A DNA stretch of 64,000 bases. It comes from an uncultured SAR86 cluster bacterium (GTDB lineage: Bacteria; Pseudomonadota; Gammaproteobacteria; Magnimaribacterales; AG-339-G14). This document shows, one piece after another, positions 29,419 to 45,385 of this stretch. The number at the start of each line of letters is the position of its first letter. The stretch's first letter is position 1. The stretch lies in contig CASICS010000004.1 of assembly GCA_949373255.1 (NCBI GenBank), forward strand, positions 41,625-105,624, read 5' to 3'. Both the position numbers and the translations under genes were made by a program. The notes under the pieces are model-generated. The model made no database searches and was not told the origin of the DNA. It worked only from the letters and a program-made list of their open reading frames with translations.

Positions 29419-32400
29419 CTATTGCATGCGATAAGTGAATCCAGCTTTGATATATCTTCCTAATGGACTATGAGTATTTGGATCATAGTTCATTTCCCAG
29501 GCTACTAAAGGTGGGTTTTCATCAGTTAGATTATAGACAGAAAGTGACAAATCAAATTGATCATCCATAGTGTAAGTATAAGTTGCATCTACAGTTGTTT
29601 GAGCATCAATGCCTAAAGAGCCTCGACGGTCGTAGTAGCTATCTATGTGATTAACCGCTACATATAGATTATGAAGGTTATCTTTATAGTTAGTAAATGC
29701 TTTAGCCTTTCTAGCCGGCATAGATCTGCAAGTATTGTTAATATTGAAAAATCCAGCACATTCATAAGCTCCAGCTATCGTTACACCATTTATAATGTAA
29801 GCAGCAACAGAGTAGTCAATAATTTCAGTTGCTTCTATACCCGTTGCCAAAGTACCGTTAGCTATATCCATTTCATATTGAACGAATAAATCTATCCCAT
29901 CTGTTTCGGTAGAAGGTCCATTAACATAGTTGGATTGAATCCTAGCAACACTAGAAGCTGCACCAGTTCCATCATTGACCAAACCACCCGATGTTGAAGT
30001 AAATATCTGGCTTTGAATAGCAGCTTTTGCTGCACCGCCGCCAGCATAAGCTGACATCAATTGAGTGTAGTTTTCACTAATTATTGGATTTCTAAAATCA
30101 AAATTATAATAATCAATAGTTGCTGTCCAATTATCTGTTCCAAAATCTGTTACAAGTCCTACATTGTAGGTAGTTGCTTCTTCCGGTTTTAAATTTGGAT
30201 TTCCTGTGATATCTACTCCTTTAAAAGCCCCTGCTTGAGATACATATGAAAGTGCAGTAACACGAGTGTTAGATGTTTCATCTGGATGTGGCGCTCTGAA
30301 GGTAGTTTGTCCAGTAAACCTCATAGTTAATGATTCCATTGGAGTCCATCGAGCTACTATTTTAGGATCTAAAGTAGAATCGGTTCCGTAATCTTCATAT
30401 CTTAAAGCTATTTGCATATCGAATGAATCAGAAACAGGTAGTGCTAACTCTCCAAAGAATGCATCAACGTTTTGATCTGTATCAACTTCAAAAGTTGGCG
30501 CCAAAAACATAAACAAACCTACTGGATTAGCCGCACATGCCGCTCTTCCAGATGCTGATTCATTTTCTGTTGGTGTCGCACATGGATAAAGTAATCCATT
30601 ATGAATATTTGTATTCGAGTTACCAGCTGTAGGGCCAGCTCTATTCGGTGTCGTAGTTTTAATATTATATTCTCGTCTTTCATAACCTAATGCCCAAGCT
30701 GCATCGCCACCGGCTAATTCAAAATTAGAGTAAGTACCTTGAGCAACAAAATCGGCTGTCGTTAATGTTGACTCTGAAATAGTTATTCTTTGATCGATTA
30801 AATATCTCATTAAATCTGCTGAGTTAGCTAAACTAGATTCGTAGTATTGGTTAGTTGTCGCTCCTGCTTGCTGAGCTAATTCGACAGAATTAGACAGAGG
30901 ATTGACATACTGACAGCCTGTAGGCCTTGCTGTGTCTTTATCTTTAACAACTGAAGCAGCAATTGCTGTATTCGTAGATTTGACTTTGAACTGCGGAGTT
31001 AAATCAGTTGCGCTTGTATTTAACGCCGTTAATTCAACATCACAATTGGGTCCACCATAGCCCCAAAGGGCGGATAAATACTTATGTTGTTGTGTATCTG
31101 AAGAAGTGATTTCTCCTTCACTAGTTGAATAATTTAAGCTAGCTGCATACTGAACATCATCTGTTAAATTACCTTCTATTCCAAAAGCCATTCTATAAGT
31201 ATCGTATTCTCTAGATTCAGTTTGCGCTCCTCTTGAATTTCCAAAAGGGTTACCGCCTGCTCCCATAGCTCTAACTCTTAACCTATGATAGGCACTTCTA
31301 TCGGTTCCATCACCACCATAATTGGTTGCGGTTAAACTATCACAAAAAGCCGAGTGATCTGTACATAACTGAGTCATACCAGGATGAAAATCAGGTATGG
31401 TGTTTGTAGAGGGATTGTTTGGAGGGTATGACGGAGATGTTGCCCAATGAGGAACATCCGTATTTCCATACAAAAACTCTGCGTGATAATCATGTCCATT
31501 GATGTCGCCATTAGCTTCCATCCACAATTGCGTGTTTTCTTGTTCTTCTTGAACATTATCAAACCAAGAGTATTGATATCGACAGAAACCTGCGGCACTA
31601 GCATCAGCTGTAACATTCGTATAAGACGGAATATTCTGGAAATATCCACCAGCATCGTTACAACCAGGATCAGCCAAGAAATTAAATCCACCTCCGTCAA
31701 ACCAAACAAAAGTTGGAGGGTTACCTAAAGTTGACCAACCACCTGCTGCGTCACCACTTCCTTTGTAAGTGTTTGGAAATGATCTGATCGCATAATCCGT
31801 TTCTCTAGCTGCGAGTTCCGGTTTGAATTGTTGACCCAAAGAAATCATAAAGTTTGTATCGCCTATGAGCGTGCCATAAGTTAAAGAAAATTCTCTTGCT
31901 TCATCATCTGCATCTGGAATATCTTTACCTGCTATATTTGCTTTAAAGCCAATAAAATTAGCGTCGGTAATAAAGTTGACTACACCAGAAATCGCATCAG
32001 ATCCATAAGTTGCTGCTGCTCCTTCTTTCAAAATTTCTATAGTTCTTAAAGCTCCCATTGGTAAATCATGAAGGTTTACAGATCGTCCAGCACCAGTCGT
32101 TAATGGAGCTGTAACTTGTCTTTTACCGTTAATAAGAACCAAAGTTCTATTTGTTCCCAAACCTCTCAAGTTAACATTTGAAAGTCCCTCAGCTCCATTG
32201 GAGCCGAACTGATTTGATTCACCATCCATCCCAGTACTTCCTGGAATCATTTTTATTAGCTCTACAATATTTAGGTTTCCCTGAGCAGTAACGCTCTCAG
32301 AATCAATTTTTTGAATAGGTGAGCCTGAATCAATTGGCGTACCTTTAATTAAGGAACCAATTACAGTAACTGACTCATCCTGAGCAAAGGCAGCAAAAGA

Positions 32401-32442
32401 AATACAGCTTGCCACCATAGTTAATAAGATTTTTTTCAACAT
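29419..32442 (-). CDS. TonB-dependent outer-membrane receptor (1007 aa)
   Basis: It has a signal peptide (…SFAAFA/QDE), a TonB-box-like ESVTVIGS, a plug domain (NLRGLGTNRTLVLINGKR), and a long Gly/Thr/Tyr/Asn-rich beta-barrel. Confidence 0.85.
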   Translation of the reverse strand: MLKKILLTMVASCISFAAFAQDESVTVIGSLIKGTPIDSGSPIQKIDSESVTAQGNLNIVELIKMIPGSTGMDGESNQFGSNGAEGLSNVNLRGLGTNRTLVLINGKRQVTAPLTTGAGRSVNLHDLPMGALRTIEILKEGAAATYGSDAISGVVNFITDANFIGFKANIAGKDIPDADDEAREFSLTYGTLIGDTNFMISLGQQFKPELAARETDYAIRSFPNTYKGSGDAAGGWSTLGNPPTFVWFDGGGFNFLADPGCNDAGGYFQNIPSYTNVTADASAAGFCRYQYSWFDNVQEEQENTQLWMEANGDINGHDYHAEFLYGNTDVPHWATSPSYPPNNPSTNTIPDFHPGMTQLCTDHSAFCDSLTATNYGGDGTDRSAYHRLRVRAMGAGGNPFGNSRGAQTESREYDTYRMAFGIEGNLTDDVQYAASLNYSTSEGEITSSDTQQHKYLSALWGYGGPNCDVELTALNTSATDLTPQFKVKSTNTAIAASVVKDKDTARPTGCQYVNPLSNSVELAQQAGATTNQYYESSLANSADLMRYLIDQRITISESTLTTADFVAQGTYSNFELAGGDAAWALGYERREYNIKTTTPNRAGPTAGNSNTNIHNGLLYPCATPTENESASGRAACAANPVGLFMFLAPTFEVDTDQNVDAFFGELALPVSDSFDMQIALRYEDYGTDSTLDPKIVARWTPMESLTMRFTGQTTFRAPHPDETSNTRVTALSYVSQAGAFKGVDITGNPNLKPEEATTYNVGLVTDFGTDNWTATIDYYNFDFRNPIISENYTQLMSAYAGGGAAKAAIQSQIFTSTSGGLVNDGTGAASSVARIQSNYVNGPSTETDGIDLFVQYEMDIANGTLATGIEATEIIDYSVAAYIINGVTIAGAYECAGFFNINNTCRSMPARKAKAFTNYKDNLHNLYVAVNHIDSYYDRRGSLGIDAQTTVDATYTYTMDDQFDLSLSVYNLTDENPPLVAWEMNYDPNTHSPLGRYIKAGFTYRMQ

Positions 32443-32558: not shown

Positions 32559-33434
32559 TTATTTTTTCATTGGTCTGATTAGCCCTTCTTGAACTGCAGA
32601 AGCAACTAAAGTTCCATCTTTTGTAAAAATGTTACCCCTATTAAAGCCATTGGCATTACTAGCACTTGGACTGTCGAGGGCATAAAGCAACCATTCATCT
32701 GCTCTAAATTCTCTGTGAAACCACATTGCATGATCTAAGCTTGCTGCCTGAATAGTTCGATTAAAAGCACCCCAGCCAATACCGTGTGGTTTTTGACAAG
32801 TACCCATTAAACCCATATCAGATGCATAGGCCAATACGGCTTGATGCACCAAATAATTATCCGGCAGTTTTCCCGATGCTTTTATCCAAATGTGTTTGAT
32901 AGGAGGACCTACATCTTTAGTAAAAGGATCCCAAGGTTCTACGTTTCTTATCTCAATTGGTTTGTCTCTTAGAAAAGCATCCAGCATTTCTTTTGGAATC
33001 TTGCCTTTAAATTCTTCTCTAACTTCCCTGTCGCTTTTGAGAGATTCCGGACCTGGGACATCTGGCATTTCAAATTGATGTTCATAACCTTCTTCTTTAA
33101 CCTTGAAAGAAACAGACATATTAAAAATAAATTCTCCATTTTGAATTGCATTGACAGTTCGCGTAGTGAAACTTTTTCCATCTCTTATTCTGTCAACGTT
33201 ATAAAGAATCGGCATGTCTACTCGGCCAGGTCTCAAAAAATATGCATGCAAGGAATGAGCAATTCTTGAACCTTCAACTGTTTGGTGAGCCGCACTCAAA
33301 GCTTGTCCTATTACCTGTCCTCCGAAGACTCTACCCCAAGCGGTTTTCTCACTTTGGCCGCGAAACAGGTTTTCTTCAAATTTTTCTAACGCTAGAGTTT
33401 TTACTAGCTCGTCTAATAATTTTTGATCTGTCAT
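32559..33434 (-). CDS. tesB: acyl-CoA thioesterase II
   Basis: It has a double hot-dog layout. LLDELVKTLALEKFEENLFRGQS and GGQVIGQAL are typical of TesB. Confidence 0.85.
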   Translation of the reverse strand: MTDQKLLDELVKTLALEKFEENLFRGQSEKTAWGRVFGGQVIGQALSAAHQTVEGSRIAHSLHAYFLRPGRVDMPILYNVDRIRDGKSFTTRTVNAIQNGEFIFNMSVSFKVKEEGYEHQFEMPDVPGPESLKSDREVREEFKGKIPKEMLDAFLRDKPIEIRNVEPWDPFTKDVGPPIKHIWIKASGKLPDNYLVHQAVLAYASDMGLMGTCQKPHGIGWGAFNRTIQAASLDHAMWFHREFRADEWLLYALDSPSASNANGFNRGNIFTKDGTLVASAVQEGLIRPMKK

Positions 33435-33436
33435 TT

Positions 33437-34225
33437 TTAATCCTTTATAGAATGATCGACTGTCTTGGCTGGCGAATCGGTCGAGGGTCTGCCAACGATG
33501 ATTGCCGGAACCCCTGCAACTGTTGTGTTCATTGGAACATTTTCAAGTACAACACTGCCTGCGGCTACTTTCGCACCTTCGCCTATTTCAACATTACCAA
33601 TGATTTTAGCTCCAGCGCTAATCAAGACACCCTTGCGAACTTTAGGGTGGCGATCTCCGGTAATTTTTCCTGTTCCACCAAGAGTCACGCCTTGAAAAAT
33701 AGAAACATCATCTTCAACTATGCTTGTCTCACCAATAACTATTCCTGTCGCATGATCTAACATCACGCCATTTCCAATAGATGCACTAGGGTGAATATCA
33801 ACGCCATAAATTTTAGAAGCCTGGCTTTGTAAAAAAGATGCCATAAAAGTTTTCTTTATCTTTATAAAGTTACTTGCCGCTCTATGTGATTGCAAAGCCA
33901 AAAACCCTTTTGAAAATAGCAAGGTTAACAAATAGCCCTTTGATGCTGGGTCTCTTTTTTTAACTGCTGATAAATCTTTTACGACTCCAGCTAATATTGC
34001 TTCATCTTGAAAAATAACTTCTAATTCTTTTTTTAAAAAAATATCACTAAAGCCTTCCTCATGAATATCGCAAGCCAAATCTTCAGCTAACCTAAAAGAC
34101 AGAGCTTCTCCCAAGCCTTTGTATGGCAAAACATGAGCTTGAAGAAAAACTTCAGCATGCGAATCTTCATCGGCAAATTTCTTTGCTTCATCTTCGATTT
34201 CAGACCAGATCTTTATTGCATCCAT
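33437..34225 (-). CDS. cysE: serine O-acetyltransferase
   Basis: It has an N-terminal SATase helical domain plus hexapeptide repeats (GVDIHPSASIGNGVMLDHATGIVIGE). Confidence 0.9.
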   Translation of the reverse strand: MDAIKIWSEIEDEAKKFADEDSHAEVFLQAHVLPYKGLGEALSFRLAEDLACDIHEEGFSDIFLKKELEVIFQDEAILAGVVKDLSAVKKRDPASKGYLLTLLFSKGFLALQSHRAASNFIKIKKTFMASFLQSQASKIYGVDIHPSASIGNGVMLDHATGIVIGETSIVEDDVSIFQGVTLGGTGKITGDRHPKVRKGVLISAGAKIIGNVEIGEGAKVAAGSVVLENVPMNTTVAGVPAIIVGRPSTDSPAKTVDHSIKD

Positions 34226-34327
34226 AATAATAACTTTAGAGTAAAAATTATAAGGTAAGTTTACTTGAAGACATGGATAATTTCTTGCTGTCTTAGTAAA
34301 AAAAAGGATAATAAACTCTTTTACATT

Positions 34328-35317
34328 ATGGCCACCTACACAAATTTTTCAGAAAACACACCTGACGTTAAAATCAATGTCGGAGATACCTTCGGTATAA
34401 AAGCAGATTTTGAAGTTCCCGCTTTCGCTGAAGCGAATGAATACGTTCCACAAATAGATGAATCTTATTGCTTTGATAAAGCAACGACTCTTTCAATTCT
34501 TGCTGGATTTTCCAACAACAGAAGAGTAATGGTGCAAGGTCTTCATGGCTCTGGTAAGTCTACTCACATCGAACAAGTTGCAGCTCGGTTAAACTGGCCC
34601 TGTGTTAGGGTCAACTTAGATAGTCACATCAGTCGATTAGACCTGTTGGGTAAAGATGCGATAGTAATTGAGAGCAATAAACAAATTACGAAATTTCAAG
34701 AAGGTATTTTGCCATGGGCTATTCAAAATCCCACTGCCTTGGTCTTTGATGAATACGATGCCGGAAGACCAGATGTTATGTTTGTAATTCAAAGAGTTTT
34801 AGAGGTGGAAGGCAAATTAACTTTATTAGATCAAAATAGAGTCTTAACTCCGAATCCCTTTTTTAGACTCTTTGCTACTGCAAATACAGTAGGTCTAGGC
34901 GATAGCACTGGTCTTTATCACGGCACCCAACAAATAAATCAAGGTCAAATGGATAGATGGCAAATCGTGTCATGTCTTAATTATTTATCAGTAGAATTGG
35001 AAACCAAGGTAATTCTTTCAAAAGTTCCCGAACTTAATAATAAGAAAGGCTTACTATCTGTGAAGAATATGATTGAACTAGCTAACTTAACTAGAGAAGG
35101 ATTTAAAAATGGAGACATATCCAATTTAATGTCACCAAGAACGGTCATTAGCTGGGCTGAGAATTTCCAAATTTTTTCAGATTTAGCCACTTCATTTGAA
35201 TTGAGTTTTTTAAACAAGTGTGACGAAACTGAGAAGCCAATAATTTCGGAGTACTTTCAAAGATGTTTTGATATTGAAGTTGCTGACTCAGTATCAAAGC
35301 TAATAGATAAGGATTGA
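34328..35317 (+). CDS. cobS: CobS-like MoxR-class AAA+ ATPase
   Basis: It is very close to aerobic cobaltochelatase CobS ([30 protein letters not shown], Walker [31 protein letters not shown]). I prefer the ATG at 34328 over the TTG-initiated extension at 34265. Confidence 0.8.
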
Positions 35318-37071
35318 GCGATAAATCTTCAGATCAAGTAATAAAGGATGCTCTCTCATCTTCGACGAGAGCTATATCTAAGAATAAGGAATTAGAACTC
35401 AGTTTTGGCATAGACTCGCTATCATCTAATTCAATTCCTAAGGTTTCATCATCCAAAGAAGATCTTGTTTTTTCCAGGGGCAAATCAGACAAGATTGCTC
35501 TTAAAGAAAAATATTCAACTGAATCTCCAAATAAAATAACTGGCGTTGCTGAATTAGATCAAATCTTATTCGACCAAAACGAGATAAGACTCGAAATTTT
35601 AGGTTCTCTACAATTCAGCGGCGTTAAAAATAATTTACATTCTGTTTTTCTTGAATCTTTAAAAGATTTTGCTCCTGAGACCCCCCTTCAAGGTGCAAGC
35701 AAAGCTTTACAGATTTGGCTCAAGCAAAACATCTTGAAACTCAAATTGACGCCTAAAGAAGAAAAGTTTTTAAAGCCCCTGAAAGAAGATTTAAATGCTA
35801 TTGAAAAAAAATATATTCCTCGTATCAAAGAGTCACTCGAGGTTAAAGAAGATTATTTATCTGAAATCCAAGAAGTATTGAATGCTCTTAATATTTCATT
35901 TGATGAAAACAAAGAAGAACAAGAAGACGAGGAATCATCATCTGATCAAGAGGATCAAAGTGATTCTGAGGATCAAGATGGACAGGATGAAGATCAATCT
36001 GAAGAAAGCACTCCTTCGGAACCCGAAGAAGCAGAAAATGAATCTTCTGAAGATTTTGATATGGAAGATGGAGAAACCGAGGAGACAGAAGAGGAGTGGT
36101 TAGAAAATAGATCAAAATTAGAAGAGCTTTTAGGTCAAGTTAAAGAAACTGAATATAAAGTTTTTTCGAGAGATTATGATGAGACTATTGATGCAGAAGA
36201 TTTATGTTCAGCCGAGGAGTTAAGAAGATTAAGAACACGCTTAGATCAACTCATTGATCCTAGCAAATCAGTTATAGCAAAACTTGCAAATCGCTTGCAA
36301 AGACTTCTTTTGGCGCAACAAAACCGTTCCTGGGAATATGATAAAGATGAAGGTATTTTAGATACCTCAAAGTTACATAAAATTATCACTGATCCGCTTA
36401 CCTCTTTAAGCTTTAAACAAGAAAAAGATACTAAATTTAAAGATACAGTTGTAACAATTTTAGTGGATAGCTCTGGTTCGATGAGAGGAAGATCAATGAC
36501 TACTGCAGCAATTTCTGCAGACATCATTGGAGCTACTTTGGATAGATGTAATATCAAAACTGAAATACTTGGTTTTACTACTAAAAATTGGAAAGGCGGA
36601 GAGAGTAGAAGATTATGGGTTGAATGCGGAAAACCCAATAACCCTGGCCGATTAAACGATTTACGTCATATTATATTTAAACCGGCAGATCTTGCCTGGA
36701 GAAGAGCTAAGAAAAATCTTGGCTTAATGTTAAGAGAGGGTTTGCTTAAAGAAAATGTTGATGGTGAGGCTCTTTTGTGGGCTTGTGGAAGACTATTTAA
36801 AAGGCCTGAGCAAAGGCAAATTTTAATGGTTATTTCAGATGGTGCTCCAGTGGACGATAGTACACTATCAACTAATTCAACTAGTTATTTAGACAACCAT
36901 CTGAAGGCTGTTATAAAAGAAATAGAAAATAAAACTGATATAGATCTTCTGGCTATTGGTATTGGTCATGATGTAACCAGGTATTATTCAAAAGCGGTTA
37001 CAATTCACAGAGCTGAAGAACTCGGTGGGGTAATGTTAGAGCAACTCACAGAATTATTTATTACGGATTAA
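35314..37071 (+). CDS. cobT: CobT-like protein with a central acidic tract and a C-terminal von Willebrand A domain
   Basis: It has a Glu/Asp/Ser-rich low-complexity block (about 35890-36110), then a VWA with MIDAS DSSGSM. It overlaps the cobS-like stop by 4 nt. Confidence 0.75.
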
Positions 37072-37155: not shown

Positions 37156-38352
37156 ATGAAAATTACAAAAACTGACAGTCCCCCTAAAGATTTGGTTTAT
37201 TTTGGTGAGGCGAAGCAAGAAAACCACGCAGAAGAAGAATTAGATTTATCTCCGAAGCAAGTTGAAGATGTAGTAGAGATATTCAACACTCCTTTAACAG
37301 GCTCTTATAACTGGGATTACACAGTTGCAGATAATAGAATCAAAAAGCTCTACGAATTAGGTAAAGAAATGAATTGGAATGGTTCTATTGATCTCGATTG
37401 GGATTATAACCATCCCGCTGACCAAAAATTAATGGGTATCGAAGGAATTACATTGCCGCATGAGGAACTGGATGCATACAAGAACTTATCGCCTGAAAAG
37501 AAAATAGAATTTGATCGTCATGAAACTGCTGAGGTTCTCTCTCAGTTTTTACATGGAGAACAAGGAGCGTTGCTTGTTGCTTCTCAACTAGCGAATTGTG
37601 CGCCAACTTTTAATGCAAAACTTTATGCAGCGTCGCAAACTTTTGATGAGGCAAGGCATGTAGAGGTTTTCAACAGATATCTTCAAGAGAAAGTAGGTTA
37701 CCACTATCCAATCAACCCTAACTTAAAAGCTTTGTTAGATAAAATCCTTACCGATCCTAGGTGGGATCTTAAATTCATTGGTATGCAAATTATCATTGAA
37801 GGTTTAGCCTTAGCTGCTTTTACTAATATGAAGTTAAGTGCGAATGATCCATTATTAAAAACTCTTCTTCATTACGTCATAAGAGATGAAGCAAGGCATG
37901 TAACTTTCGGTATTAATTACCTAGAAGACTTTGTTCAAACATTAACTCCTGAAGAAATAGAAGACAGAGCTCAGTTTGCATATGAAGCTTGCGTTATTTC
38001 TAGAGAAAGATTGAGCAACAACAAAGCCATGTCTAAATACTTAGATATGACCGAAGATGAAGCTAGAGAGTTCCAATTACAAAATGGTGCAATGGATCAG
38101 TTCAGAAGCTTCCTCTTTTCAAGAGTCATGCCTAATCTTAAAAAGATTGGTCTTTTAACGGATAGTGTTAGACCTAAATATGAAGCATTAGGAATACTAG
38201 AATATGAGCATGCTCCAAGTGATTTTGAAATTGATTGGGCAGAAATAACTAAGCCTTTAGAAACTACTGAGCAAGTTAAAAAAGAATCTGATGAGATGTT
38301 AGCTGCAATACAAGCTCAAGCAGCTGCAGCAGAAGCAACAGCTAATAGCTAA
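37156..38352 (+). CDS. ferritin-like di-iron carboxylate oxygenase (AurF-like family)
   Basis: It has two E...EXXH units (HGEQGA...FDEARHVEVF; IIIEGLA...RDEARHVTFG). The substrate is unknown. Confidence 0.6.
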   Translation: MKITKTDSPPKDLVYFGEAKQENHAEEELDLSPKQVEDVVEIFNTPLTGSYNWDYTVADNRIKKLYELGKEMNWNGSIDLDWDYNHPADQKLMGIEGITLPHEELDAYKNLSPEKKIEFDRHETAEVLSQFLHGEQGALLVASQLANCAPTFNAKLYAASQTFDEARHVEVFNRYLQEKVGYHYPINPNLKALLDKILTDPRWDLKFIGMQIIIEGLALAAFTNMKLSANDPLLKTLLHYVIRDEARHVTFGINYLEDFVQTLTPEEIEDRAQFAYEACVISRERLSNNKAMSKYLDMTEDEAREFQLQNGAMDQFRSFLFSRVMPNLKKIGLLTDSVRPKYEALGILEYEHAPSDFEIDWAEITKPLETTEQVKKESDEMLAAIQAQAAAAEATANS

Positions 38353-38363
38353 ACTAATCTTTA

Positions 38364-38978
38364 ATGGGCGCGCTGGTTGATTTAAATTTGATCAAATCAG
38401 CGCCCATTGATGATACTTATTTTCCATACTTCGCAGTTGAAAACTGCATCACCGAAGATGGGCAATCCCTGCCTAAAGAATTTCCCGATTTAACTAAAGG
38501 CGGGAGTTATCCGAGCGATATGCCGGGTCTTTCTGAAAAGATTAAAAATCTTATATCTGAAATAGAAAGTGAAGAAATGCAAAAAGTACTTTCTGAAAAG
38601 TTTGACATTAATTTAGATGATGTAGAGATAGTGACCACTCTAAGAGGCTACTCAAGAATGAAGGATGGGCAAATCCATACTGATTCGAAAACTAAGCTTC
38701 TTACCATGTTGTTGTATTTAAATGAAAGTTGGGAAGAGAGTGCTGGATTACTTAGAATGCTCAAAAATGATAATGATTTAGAAGATTATATTGAAGAGCT
38801 GCCAGCTACCTTAGGTAGTTTGGTTGTATTTAAAGTAACAGAAAATTGTTGGCATGGTTTTCATCCCTTTGAAGGCAAAAGACTTTCATTGCAAATGAAT
38901 TACATCAAGAAGGAATCTGCTTCACAGCACAAGATTAGACACGGATTAAGTTCTTTTATTAAAAAAATATTTAAGTAA
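38364..38978 (+). CDS. 2OG-Fe(II) oxygenase superfamily protein (prolyl-4-hydroxylase-like)
   Basis: It has an HxD...H facial triad candidate (IHTDSK ... CWHGFHPF) and an RLSLQ 2OG-binding Arg context. Confidence 0.6.
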   Translation: MGALVDLNLIKSAPIDDTYFPYFAVENCITEDGQSLPKEFPDLTKGGSYPSDMPGLSEKIKNLISEIESEEMQKVLSEKFDINLDDVEIVTTLRGYSRMKDGQIHTDSKTKLLTMLLYLNESWEESAGLLRMLKNDNDLEDYIEELPATLGSLVVFKVTENCWHGFHPFEGKRLSLQMNYIKKESASQHKIRHGLSSFIKKIFK

Positions 38979-38990
38979 AAATATCTATAC

Positions 38991-39794
38991 ATGAGCAAAA
39001 TAAGCCTTGGGATAGATTTTGGAATTACTAATACAGATTTGGTTATCGCCGATCACAACCAAATTAGCTACTTTTCTTGCCCTTCTAAGGAAGTAACGAT
39101 TCAAAACCTAAAAGAACTCATCAAAGAAAACCAATTGAATCTCGATGAAATAGAAACTATCGGTGTAACTGGAGGCCGACATAACGATTTACCAGATTTG
39201 GTAAATGATGTCCCTATCACTCATTTTAATGAATTGGATGCCATTGGAAGAGGCGCTCAATCCTTAAGCAAAAATAAAATGGAAAATTTCTTGGTTATAA
39301 GTGCGGGATCTGGAACTGCATGTGTTTTAAAAAAAGACAATCAATTTATTCATGCTGGAGGAACAGGGCTAGGTGGAGGAACTATCAGAGGGTTATGCAA
39401 TCTTCTGATTAAAGAAAATAATCCTGAAAAAATAAATGCACTTTCTTTGAAAGGCGATTATAAGAAAGTAGATTTAATCTTAAAAGATGTTGTATCAGGC
39501 CCGATTGGAAATCTTCCGGAAGAAACTAGCGCTGTGAATTTTGGGAAAGTGAGTGCTTCAAATCTAAGTGATGCTGATCTTGCGGCTGGGGTAATAAATA
39601 TGGTGGCTCAAACAATACTAAAAACGGCAGCTACGGCCGCAATAGTTTCTGGAATATCAAATATTTTAATAATTGGAAGAACCCCTAAATATGATCTACT
39701 TACTAAAATATTAAAAGAAAGTTTTGATCATTTAAATTTAGAAACTGAGTTTATAGAAAACGGGGAGTATGCCATTTGTTTAGGCACTTTATAG
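38991..39794 (+). CDS. type II pantothenate kinase (Fumble/CoaW) family ASKHA ATPase
   Basis: It is collinear with S. aureus CoaW blocks: GIDFGITNTD (phosphate 1), FNELDAIGRGA, ISAGSGTA, GGTGLGGGTIRGL, SAVNFGKV, ENGEYAICLGTL. Confidence 0.6.
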   Translation: MSKISLGIDFGITNTDLVIADHNQISYFSCPSKEVTIQNLKELIKENQLNLDEIETIGVTGGRHNDLPDLVNDVPITHFNELDAIGRGAQSLSKNKMENFLVISAGSGTACVLKKDNQFIHAGGTGLGGGTIRGLCNLLIKENNPEKINALSLKGDYKKVDLILKDVVSGPIGNLPEETSAVNFGKVSASNLSDADLAAGVINMVAQTILKTAATAAIVSGISNILIIGRTPKYDLLTKILKESFDHLNLETEFIENGEYAICLGTL

Positions 39795-39826
39795 TGAGGG
39801 GCTTCAAAACCCTTCACATATTTTTT
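39794..39826 (+). terminator. rho-independent terminator ending the oxygenase/PanK-like operon
   Basis: The structure is GTGAGGGG-CTTCAAAA-CCCTTCAC followed by ATATTTTTT. Confidence 0.6.
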
Positions 39827-39873
39827 AGGTAATTAATAGAAGAAATGTCATTCAAACAAAACTTCCAAGTTTA

Positions 39874-40366: not shown

Positions 40367-40481
40367 GTCCGACGATGTCCTACTCTCGCATAGAAAAAAC
40401 TACACTACCATCGGCGCTAAGTGGTTTCACTTCTGAGTTCGAAATGGATCAGGTGGGTCACACTTGCTATTGTCATCGGAC
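40367..40481 (-). rRNA. rrf: 5S ribosomal RNA
   Basis: The reverse complement aligns along its length with E. coli 5S (…CCGAACTCAGAAGTGAAACCACTTAGCGCCGATGGTAGTGTAG…GCGAGAGTAGGACATCGTCGGAC). Confidence 0.9.
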
Positions 40482-40570
40482 AAAATTCTTATTTGTAAAA
40501 AATAATGTAATCCAACTGTTGCTACTGACAAATTAACTTGACGTTTATTTCCTAGATGTCTAGAAACATA

Positions 40571-43481
<2,911 letters not shown>

Positions 43482-43852
43482 TATATGTTTCTAAACAACT
43501 AGGTCTAAAAACTGTTAAGACATTTTGAATAATAAGCGCCAATTAAATTTGCCATTAGCATTCTAAGATATAAATATCTCAGAACATTATTGTATAAATT
43601 TGAAATAAATAAATTTATTTCGAACTTGATCTATCGTTAAAGTGAATAAATTCACTCTAAAAATAGTTTGATTAATAATTGATAACATTAATTATTAATC
43701 TAAATTAATGAATATACGAGGTCTCATCAACCTCATTCATTAATCGTTGGATTACATTACTTTAAAAGAACACACATAACTAAATACATAGTTATAAAAA
43801 TTCATATAATTCGAACGGACACTCACAAATAAAAAGGCTGTGTATAAATACA
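43482..43852 (-). other. 16S-23S internal transcribed spacer, very AT-rich, with no tRNA gene
   Basis: No GC-rich cloverleaf-capable segment and no TGGTGG.../GGGTC... acceptor sequence is present on either strand. Several AT-rich hairpins are present. Confidence 0.8.

Positions 43853-45385
<1,533 letters not shown>

Follow-up and report, generated by a model that had tools for sequence, protein, structure and literature searches.

The 64-kb window analysed here (the whole stretch of DNA under study, with a G+C content of approximately 34%) originates from an uncultured SAR86 cluster bacterium and carries an overlapping pair of genes for a CobS-like AAA+ ATPase and a CobT-like adaptor, which together correspond to the motor of the class I cobaltochelatase. 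The explanation that we consider probable is that the pair encodes a complete and working CobS-CobT motor, which is kept by SAR86 for a job other than cobalamin (B12) synthesis and which acts independently of the chelatase subunit CobN. The two proteins are orthologs of the cobaltochelatase motor and do not form a separate paralog family, and CobN, the remaining B12 pathway and the B12-dependent enzymes that we searched for are absent from the lineage.

The cobS gene (34328..35317, plus strand) encodes a protein of 329 amino acids. The longest open reading frame (ORF) begins with a TTG at 34265, but the ATG at position 34328, which is M22 of this longest ORF and was already taken as the start in the original prediction, agrees with the alignment to CobS from Brucella melitensis and is likely the true start. 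The cobT gene (35314..37071, plus strand) encodes 585 amino acids and overlaps cobS by 4 bp; the two genes are translationally coupled. The resemblance of the overlapping pair to CobS and CobT, as originally predicted, is borne out by the matches to TIGR01650 (504 bits, E 1.7e-151; the curated equivalog cut-off of 558.55 is not reached) and TIGR01651 (592 bits, E 1.5e-177; the equivalog cut-off of 759 is not reached), respectively. In CobS, both the expected domains, CobS_N (PF12556, 44.7 bits) and AAA_5 (PF07728, 43.9 bits), and the Walker motifs are present. The Walker A motif GLHGSGKS was found by motif scan at 34538..34561 (plus strand) and aligns with GYHGTGKS of Brucella CobS. The Asp-Glu of Walker B (FDEYD; 34748..34753, plus strand) was located by alignment to 9ujv and 9udk, and its Glu corresponds to E142 in Brucella numbering, the residue that is mutated to Q in PDB 9udk. 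CobT matches the Pfam families CobT (PF06213, 76 bits) and CobT_C (PF11775, 307 bits) and starts with a CobT/M48C-type domain, which an acidic and disordered linker joins to a von Willebrand factor A (VWA) domain at the C-terminus, the latter with a metal ion-dependent adhesion site (MIDAS) of the type DxSxS. The linker (35899..36099, plus strand) has a computed Asp+Glu content of approximately 49% and aligns with the corresponding acidic region of Brucella CobT, which has been described as disordered (10.64898/2026.07.21.739949). The MIDAS motif DSSGS (residues 385-389; 36466..36480, plus strand), also found by motif scan, aligns with DNSGS of Brucella CobT. An HExxH motif was not found in the motif scan of the pair.

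Among solved structures, the top match for CobS is Brucella melitensis CobS (9ujv, 462 bits), with 62% identity over 317 ungapped residues, and that for CobT is Brucella CobT (9uka_G, 500 bits), with 64% identity over the C-terminal 293 residues, again without a gap. In the Brucella complex, residues S102, D110 and R147 of CobS grip the shaft, and D263, E308, Q311, R312 and E317 of its small domain form salt bridges and hydrogen bonds with R34, R76, D80 and N130 of the CobT N-domain (10.64898/2026.07.21.739949). All eight CobS residues are identical in SAR86, and the equivalents of the four CobT residues are retained as well. Since every named contact residue is kept, we expect SAR86 CobS and CobT to form the same kind of ring-and-shaft complex as their Brucella counterparts. 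Overall, the pair shares with the CobNST motor of Brucella melitensis (9ujv/9uka) and Rhodobacter capsulatus the two-gene architecture, the domain order, the Walker and MIDAS motifs and the interface residues (10.64898/2026.07.21.739949, 10.64898/2026.10.09.757910). It differs from CobNST in that SAR86 lacks CobN, the corrin pathway and any known B12-dependent enzyme, and in that neighbors of the lipid and coenzyme A (CoA) type take the place of cob genes.

The host assembly comprises 928 kb and is 77% complete, so that calls of absence lean on relatives. CobN (PF02514) was found neither in this assembly nor in any of 50 genomes of the host family, one of them closed, nor in any of the 90 genomes from the three SAR86 families that possess CobST, closed genomes included. 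The sole CobN match in the entire order is of half length and stems from a 64% complete metagenome-assembled genome (MAG) of a family devoid of CobST. Likewise, CbiB and CbiC were each found in none of five SAR86 genomes, four of which are closed or nearly closed, and no B12-binding domain was found above the cut-off. The ribonucleotide reductase is of the class I NrdAB type and no NrdJ was found; one NrdJ candidate near the cut-off was rejected, as it is a class I NrdA with NrdB adjoining. CobW-family GTPases occur in only two of the five genomes. The window does not contain a cobalamin riboswitch, and the RNA families found there are those of rRNA only. Therefore, what defines the class I cobaltochelatase holoenzyme, namely CobN in the context of a corrin pathway and of B12-using enzymes, is not found here, and the orphan status that had been proposed for the pair from its neighborhood applies to the lineage as a whole.

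One could argue that CobST still serves the insertion of cobalt or another metal into a tetrapyrrole, either with an unrecognized large subunit or on imported corrinoids, since the architecture of the pair is nearly identical to that of a true chelatase motor and TonB-dependent receptors are common in SAR86, one of them being encoded nearby at 29419-32442. However, the closed genomes do not contain PF02514 candidates even at a loose threshold, neither CbiB and CbiC nor a B12-binding domain or NrdJ that could make use of the product were found, and the receptor reaches merely 41-46 bits against BtuB models with cut-offs of 600 and 836 and is not conserved at the locus. We therefore regard such a function as very unlikely.

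A CobS-CobT motor without CobN is not a peculiarity of SAR86. In a sample of 250 genomes of the class Gammaproteobacteria, 13 were positive for CobT and ten of these, representing nine of the eleven families, lack CobN at a completeness of 89-100%. CobN is also missing in 16 of the 17 CobT-positive genomes from the survey of diiron oxidase loci described below, and the control genome of Caulobacter vibrioides contains CobS and CobT above the cut-off but no CobN. Orphan CobST is one and the same orthologous family and not a diverged paralog, since the CobN-positive entries are scattered among the orphans in the CobT tree, with three changes. The original prediction had pointed to orphan cobS in marine phages and in marine bacteria that do not produce B12. 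The CobT of one orphan gammaproteobacterium (G070, locus L031) nests within a Hyphomonadaceae/Terricaulis clade with 96% support in the SH-like approximate likelihood ratio test, which suggests a horizontal transfer of orphan cobST between classes. Our search of the literature yielded papers on the CobNST structure and mentions of phage 'cobS', but no study of cellular CobST lacking CobN.

The pair is well conserved within SAR86. CobS is present in 43 of 50 genomes of the host family, and CobT in 27, 24 and 29 of 30 genomes each of three SAR86 families, where the pair has been kept in streamlined genomes of approximately 1.2 Mb. In 27 of the 28 SAR86 loci, the spacing between cobS and cobT lies between -4 and +12 bp. 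With dS (synonymous divergence) saturated, the within-genus dN (nonsynonymous divergence) of cobS amounts to 0.03-0.08 and that of the C-terminal cobT half to 0.04-0.06, compared to 0.03 for gltD and 0.04-0.10 for tesB. Several MAGs lack the locus because it adjoins the rRNA operon and falls into an assembly gap; a genuine loss of cobST was rejected for four of them, in which tesB and the linked diiron oxidase gene are missing, too. In one two-contig SAR86 assembly (G038:C1:1731-5618), cobS is broken into three pieces, one of them with a TAA stop, and the diiron oxidase gene into two; this reflects either long-read indel errors or a genuinely decaying locus. Such a fragmented cobS, together with the complete loss of the pair in a fourth SAR86 family (f2), might indicate that the genes are decaying relics of a lost B12 pathway without a current function. 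We consider this highly improbable: the pair persists in streamlined genomes of three families, its dN is as low as that of housekeeping neighbors, the catalytic and interface residues are all intact, and the split diiron oxidase gene in G038 points to errors of the assembly.

How might a CobN-independent motor work? By analogy to the Brucella complex, the CobS hexamer would grip the CobT shaft and would additionally be bound via the CobT N-domain. ATP hydrolysis would then turn the VWA/MIDAS domain of CobT against a protein client that takes the place of CobN, and the pair would be expressed at the head of the gene run described below. The conserved sequence supports both the complex and its ATP site, and the client and the effect exerted on it are conjectural.

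Several observations weigh against a working motor with a job of its own. Both SAR86 proteins fall short of the equivalog cut-offs of NCBIfam. None of the gammaproteobacterial CobS proteins in the sampled genomes exceeds the cut-off of TIGR01650, and the CobT proteins of CobN-bearing gammaproteobacterial genomes likewise remain below that of TIGR01651, so the two cut-offs appear to be tuned to Alphaproteobacteria. Because the host assembly is incomplete, the case for a missing cobN is built on relatives, some of them closed genomes. Within cobT, the N-terminal half evolves three to four times faster than the VWA half, possibly because the region that touches CobN in the holoenzyme is under less constraint. 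The most reduced genomes can do without the pair, since f2 has lost it entirely (CobT in none of 30 genomes). Finally, the proposed remodeling mechanism relies on the analogy to CobNST and to pairs of MoxR and VWA proteins.

The pair heads a tightly packed run of genes on the same strand, cobS-cobT-diFe(-2OG)-panK, with one putative terminator at its end. A ferritin-like diiron-carboxylate oxidase gene (diFe; 37156..38352, plus strand; Pfam AurF, 1.3e-12) starts 84 bp past cobT and is followed by a variable cassette, a 2-oxoglutarate (2OG)-Fe(II) oxygenase gene (38364..38978, plus strand; Pfam 2OG-FeII_Oxy_3), the product of which possesses the HxD...H residues. The final gene of the run encodes a type II pantothenate kinase-like protein (panK; 38991..39794, plus strand; NCBIfam PRK13317, 191 bits; Pfam Fumble). 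Right after panK, at 39794..39827, there is an intrinsic terminator-like hairpin with a T-run on the plus strand, the best-formed of three such plus-strand sites between cobS and panK. The other two are weak and lie within the coding sequences of diFe and the 2OG gene, and none was found in the intergenic gaps of this span before 39794. Divergently from cobS and on the minus strand, cysE (33437-34225) and tesB (32559-33434) are located. The presence of cysE, tesB and oxygenase genes and the lack of cob genes at the locus thus agree with what had been stated before. The divergent arrangement of cysE and tesB is conserved across SAR86 and recurs in one further family of Gammaproteobacteria (represented by G247).

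Based on this neighborhood, it had been proposed that CobST loads or matures the metal sites of the two oxygenases. The NorQ/NorD pair, for instance, loads non-haem iron into nitric oxide reductase, and CobST might accordingly serve as a chaperone dedicated to maturing, or loading metal into, the adjoining diFe oxidase and perhaps the 2OG oxygenase. Within SAR86, the linkage to diFe is indeed strict. In all 28 loci from three families, one or two diFe genes are located downstream of cobT on the same strand at a distance of -8 to 193 bp, while the flanks rearrange: cysE has moved off in one family and the distance to panK varies. In another family diFe is tandemly duplicated after cobT. Together with the diFe tree, in which different paralog subclades hold the slot after cobT in different SAR86 lineages, this linkage is the best evidence for the idea. 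The diFe ligand residues (E, ExxH, E, ExxH) are invariant across the family, and an AlphaFold model (predicted local distance difference test score 81) is nearest to R2lox, the R2 subunit of ribonucleotide reductase and aldehyde-deformylating oxygenase; the dimetal sites of R2lox and R2 require a correct assembly. A lipid or acyl substrate of diFe is plausible.

The linkage does not extend to the 2OG gene. Of the 13 host-family loci long enough to cover this stretch, just three contain it, and among SAR86 loci it is confined to genus g1 and a single g4 genome; the loci of the two other SAR86 families lack it. In f2, diFe is still present at the syntenic site, with tesB and a short-chain dehydrogenase/reductase gene divergent from it and 16 bp in place of cobST; in the diFe tree, this copy branches as the sister group of the clade linked to cobT. 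Furthermore, SAR86 genomes harbor a second, unlinked diFe paralog. A survey with one genome per species returned 80 diFe loci from lineages such as Alcanivorax, Halieaceae, Cellvibrionales, Caulobacterales, Hyphomonadaceae, Myxococcota, SAR324, Acidimicrobiia and Streptomyces. At 77 of these loci cobST is absent within 10 kb, and the other three are all of the SAR86 type. CobT is absent from 33 of 50 searched genomes of other diFe loci, two of them complete chromosomes (Alcanivorax sp. IL2 and a Cellvibrionales bacterium). Elsewhere, diFe lies next to genes for AraC-type regulators, a patatin-like lipase, an acyltransferase or a luciferase-like monooxygenase, and an AAA+/VWA pair was never seen beside diFe outside of SAR86-type loci in this neighbor survey. 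Conversely, many genomes with orphan CobST lack diFe, and 78 of 80 metagenomic CobS loci do not show SAR86-type neighbors, with diFe being present at one SAR86-like locus only.

A co-occurrence of diFe and CobT beyond SAR86 would strengthen the idea of a chaperone. In the 250-genome class sample, CobT occurs in four of seven diFe-positive genomes compared with nine of the remaining 243 (Fisher p=1.4e-4, without a correction for kinship), and in one non-SAR86 genome (G105) diFe divergently adjoins cobS. However, this association was not upheld, as a larger named sample failed to reproduce it (CobT in four of 27 gammaproteobacterial diFe genomes, p=0.07 vs background) and the lineages concerned share their neighborhood. 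G105, G160 and G247 share the type II PanK and parts of the neighborhood with SAR86, e.g. cysE and tesB divergent from cobS-cobT in G247, and their CobT proteins fall into one unresolved basal group with those of SAR86 in the CobT tree. This looks like a shared ancestry of the neighborhood and not like independent recurrence. Relatives of G105 in which the adjacency could be checked were not found, its family consisting of one genome and metagenomic CobS matches reaching at most 74% identity.

Taken together, the adjacency of cobST and diFe is a feature of the order SAR86, with traces in three related-looking lineages, and seems to go back to an ancestor shared by most of the order and not to a recent insertion, as it occurs in three of the four sampled families. 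Since most diFe-bearing organisms and f2 lack CobST, diFe does not need CobST and is at most an optional client. Hence, the proposed linkage to the oxygenases stands for diFe within SAR86, but neither for the 2OG gene nor for diFe elsewhere, and of the proposed metal-loading role the adjacency within SAR86 is what is left. A dedicated chaperone for the oxygenases is thus rather unlikely in our view, and a lineage-specific helper role of CobST for diFe, for which the adjacency is the support, is not favored. One could also combine both lines of thought: a second, CobN-free job of CobS-CobT might explain the retention of the pair in many bacteria that do not produce B12, and in SAR86, G105, G160 and G247 this job might be the ATP-driven assembly or repair of an R2lox-like dimetal site in diFe, which other lineages manage without the motor. 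We regard this combination as doubtful, even a little more so than the dedicated chaperone.

A working motor with a CobN-independent job, as we prefer it, can be compared to other ATPase-adaptor systems. In NorQ/NorD and CbbQ/CbbO, an AAA+ ATPase is also paired with a VWA/MIDAS adaptor and the two genes lie side by side. However, SAR86 CobS matches CbbQ (E 7e-6) and NorQ (E 5e-4) only weakly and is far nearer to the AAA modules of midasin (E 2e-27). In the NorQ/NorD and CbbQ/CbbO systems the client gene is usually part of the same cluster, whereas the adjoining candidate client of the SAR86 pair, diFe, is not co-distributed with it outside of SAR86 and in f2. Orphan AAA+ proteins of the CobS type, sometimes with a VWA protein and likewise without CobN, are also encoded by phages (cyanophages, pelagiphages, Rhizobium and Vibrio phages), where they carry the annotation of cobaltochelatase subunits. 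Phage CobS is at most 36% and phage CobT at most 32% identical to the SAR86 proteins, the latter in the C-terminal part only. Since the phage proteins form a distant branch, the sequences place the SAR86 pair with the cellular type and not with phage-derived proteins.

The orphans of Caulobacter vibrioides, of other Caulobacterales/Hyphomonadaceae and of several Gammaproteobacteria resemble SAR86 in having CobS and CobT without CobN, but they differ from it in their neighbors. A gene for a phytase-like esterase (PF13449) directly follows cobT in three scanned CobN-less loci of Hyphomonadaceae, Terricaulis and Henriciella; the corresponding sites are L147 6031-7011, L148 5908-6888, L149 5892-6890 and L152 6107-7195, of which L147 is an unscanned ORF of the same size. 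In the gammaproteobacterial orphans G420 and G424 a NUDIX gene takes this place, and other gammaproteobacterial orphans are flanked by genes for aldehyde dehydrogenase, thiolase, phosphate acetyltransferase and others. Surveys of nine further gammaproteobacterial lineages and of nine loci from Alphaproteobacteria did not reveal a common partner of orphan cobST; the neighbors include aldehyde dehydrogenase, phosphate acetyltransferase, M24 peptidase, cytochrome c, molybdopterin oxidoreductase, thiolase, UvrB, HerA-like protein, phytase-like esterase and NUDIX genes. Genes of acyl-CoA and CoA metabolism (tesB, enoyl-CoA hydratase, acyl-CoA dehydrogenase, thiolase and phosphate acetyltransferase) recur at a distance of a few genes from orphan cobST in several gammaproteobacterial lineages (L029, L030, L032, L034/L035 and window positions 32559-34225), and SAR86 adds cysE and panK to these. 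The families in question are common, and the recurrence may be due to chance. Two further ways to a partner were tried. Type II PanK was rejected as a co-varying partner, since the orphan-CobST genomes G070, G167, G234, G415 and G420 lack it, and one f2 genome without CobST has it. A search for clients lost together with CobST left 316 of 908 ORFs of the host genome without a homolog in the closed f2 genome G303, which is far too many to single out a client.

Some further observations concern the neighborhood. The panK gene, of the Fumble/CoaW type and here present in a gammaproteobacterium, lies downstream of cobST throughout the three SAR86 families. A tblastn search did not yield a match in the closed f2 genome G303, G306 gave no match either, and G087 contains a copy of 31% identity. 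The unlinked diFe paralog of the host genome (G000:C5:24270-25355; L063 9265-10356) is approximately 58-60% identical to the linked copy and occurs in G007, too. Overall, the diFe family comprises at least four subclades in SAR86, and diFe paralogs lie near genes for acyl-CoA dehydrogenase and APH kinase. The TonB-dependent receptor (1007 amino acids) adjoins tesB and has an ortholog of approximately 65% identity at the same position in two of three genus g2 loci. In L014, the sole g1 locus covering this position, and in one g2 locus (L024) the receptors are only 27-28% identical, and none was found at this position in the g3 and g4 loci. Downstream of the run, an rRNA operon (16S-23S-5S; 40367-45385, minus strand) with a 16S-23S spacer of 370 bp is located. 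ARAGORN did not detect tRNA genes anywhere in the window.

The presence of CobST without CobN is the more common state in the sampled genomes (10/13 and 16/17) and does not represent a separate paralog. This sharpens the old question of which role a midasin-like motor plays without its chelatase, for which the uncultured SAR86 is no easier testbed. CobS and CobT are routinely used as markers of B12 synthesis in marine metagenomics, and SAR86 is abundant. Since SAR86 possesses both genes without the pathway, such marker counts overstate B12 production.

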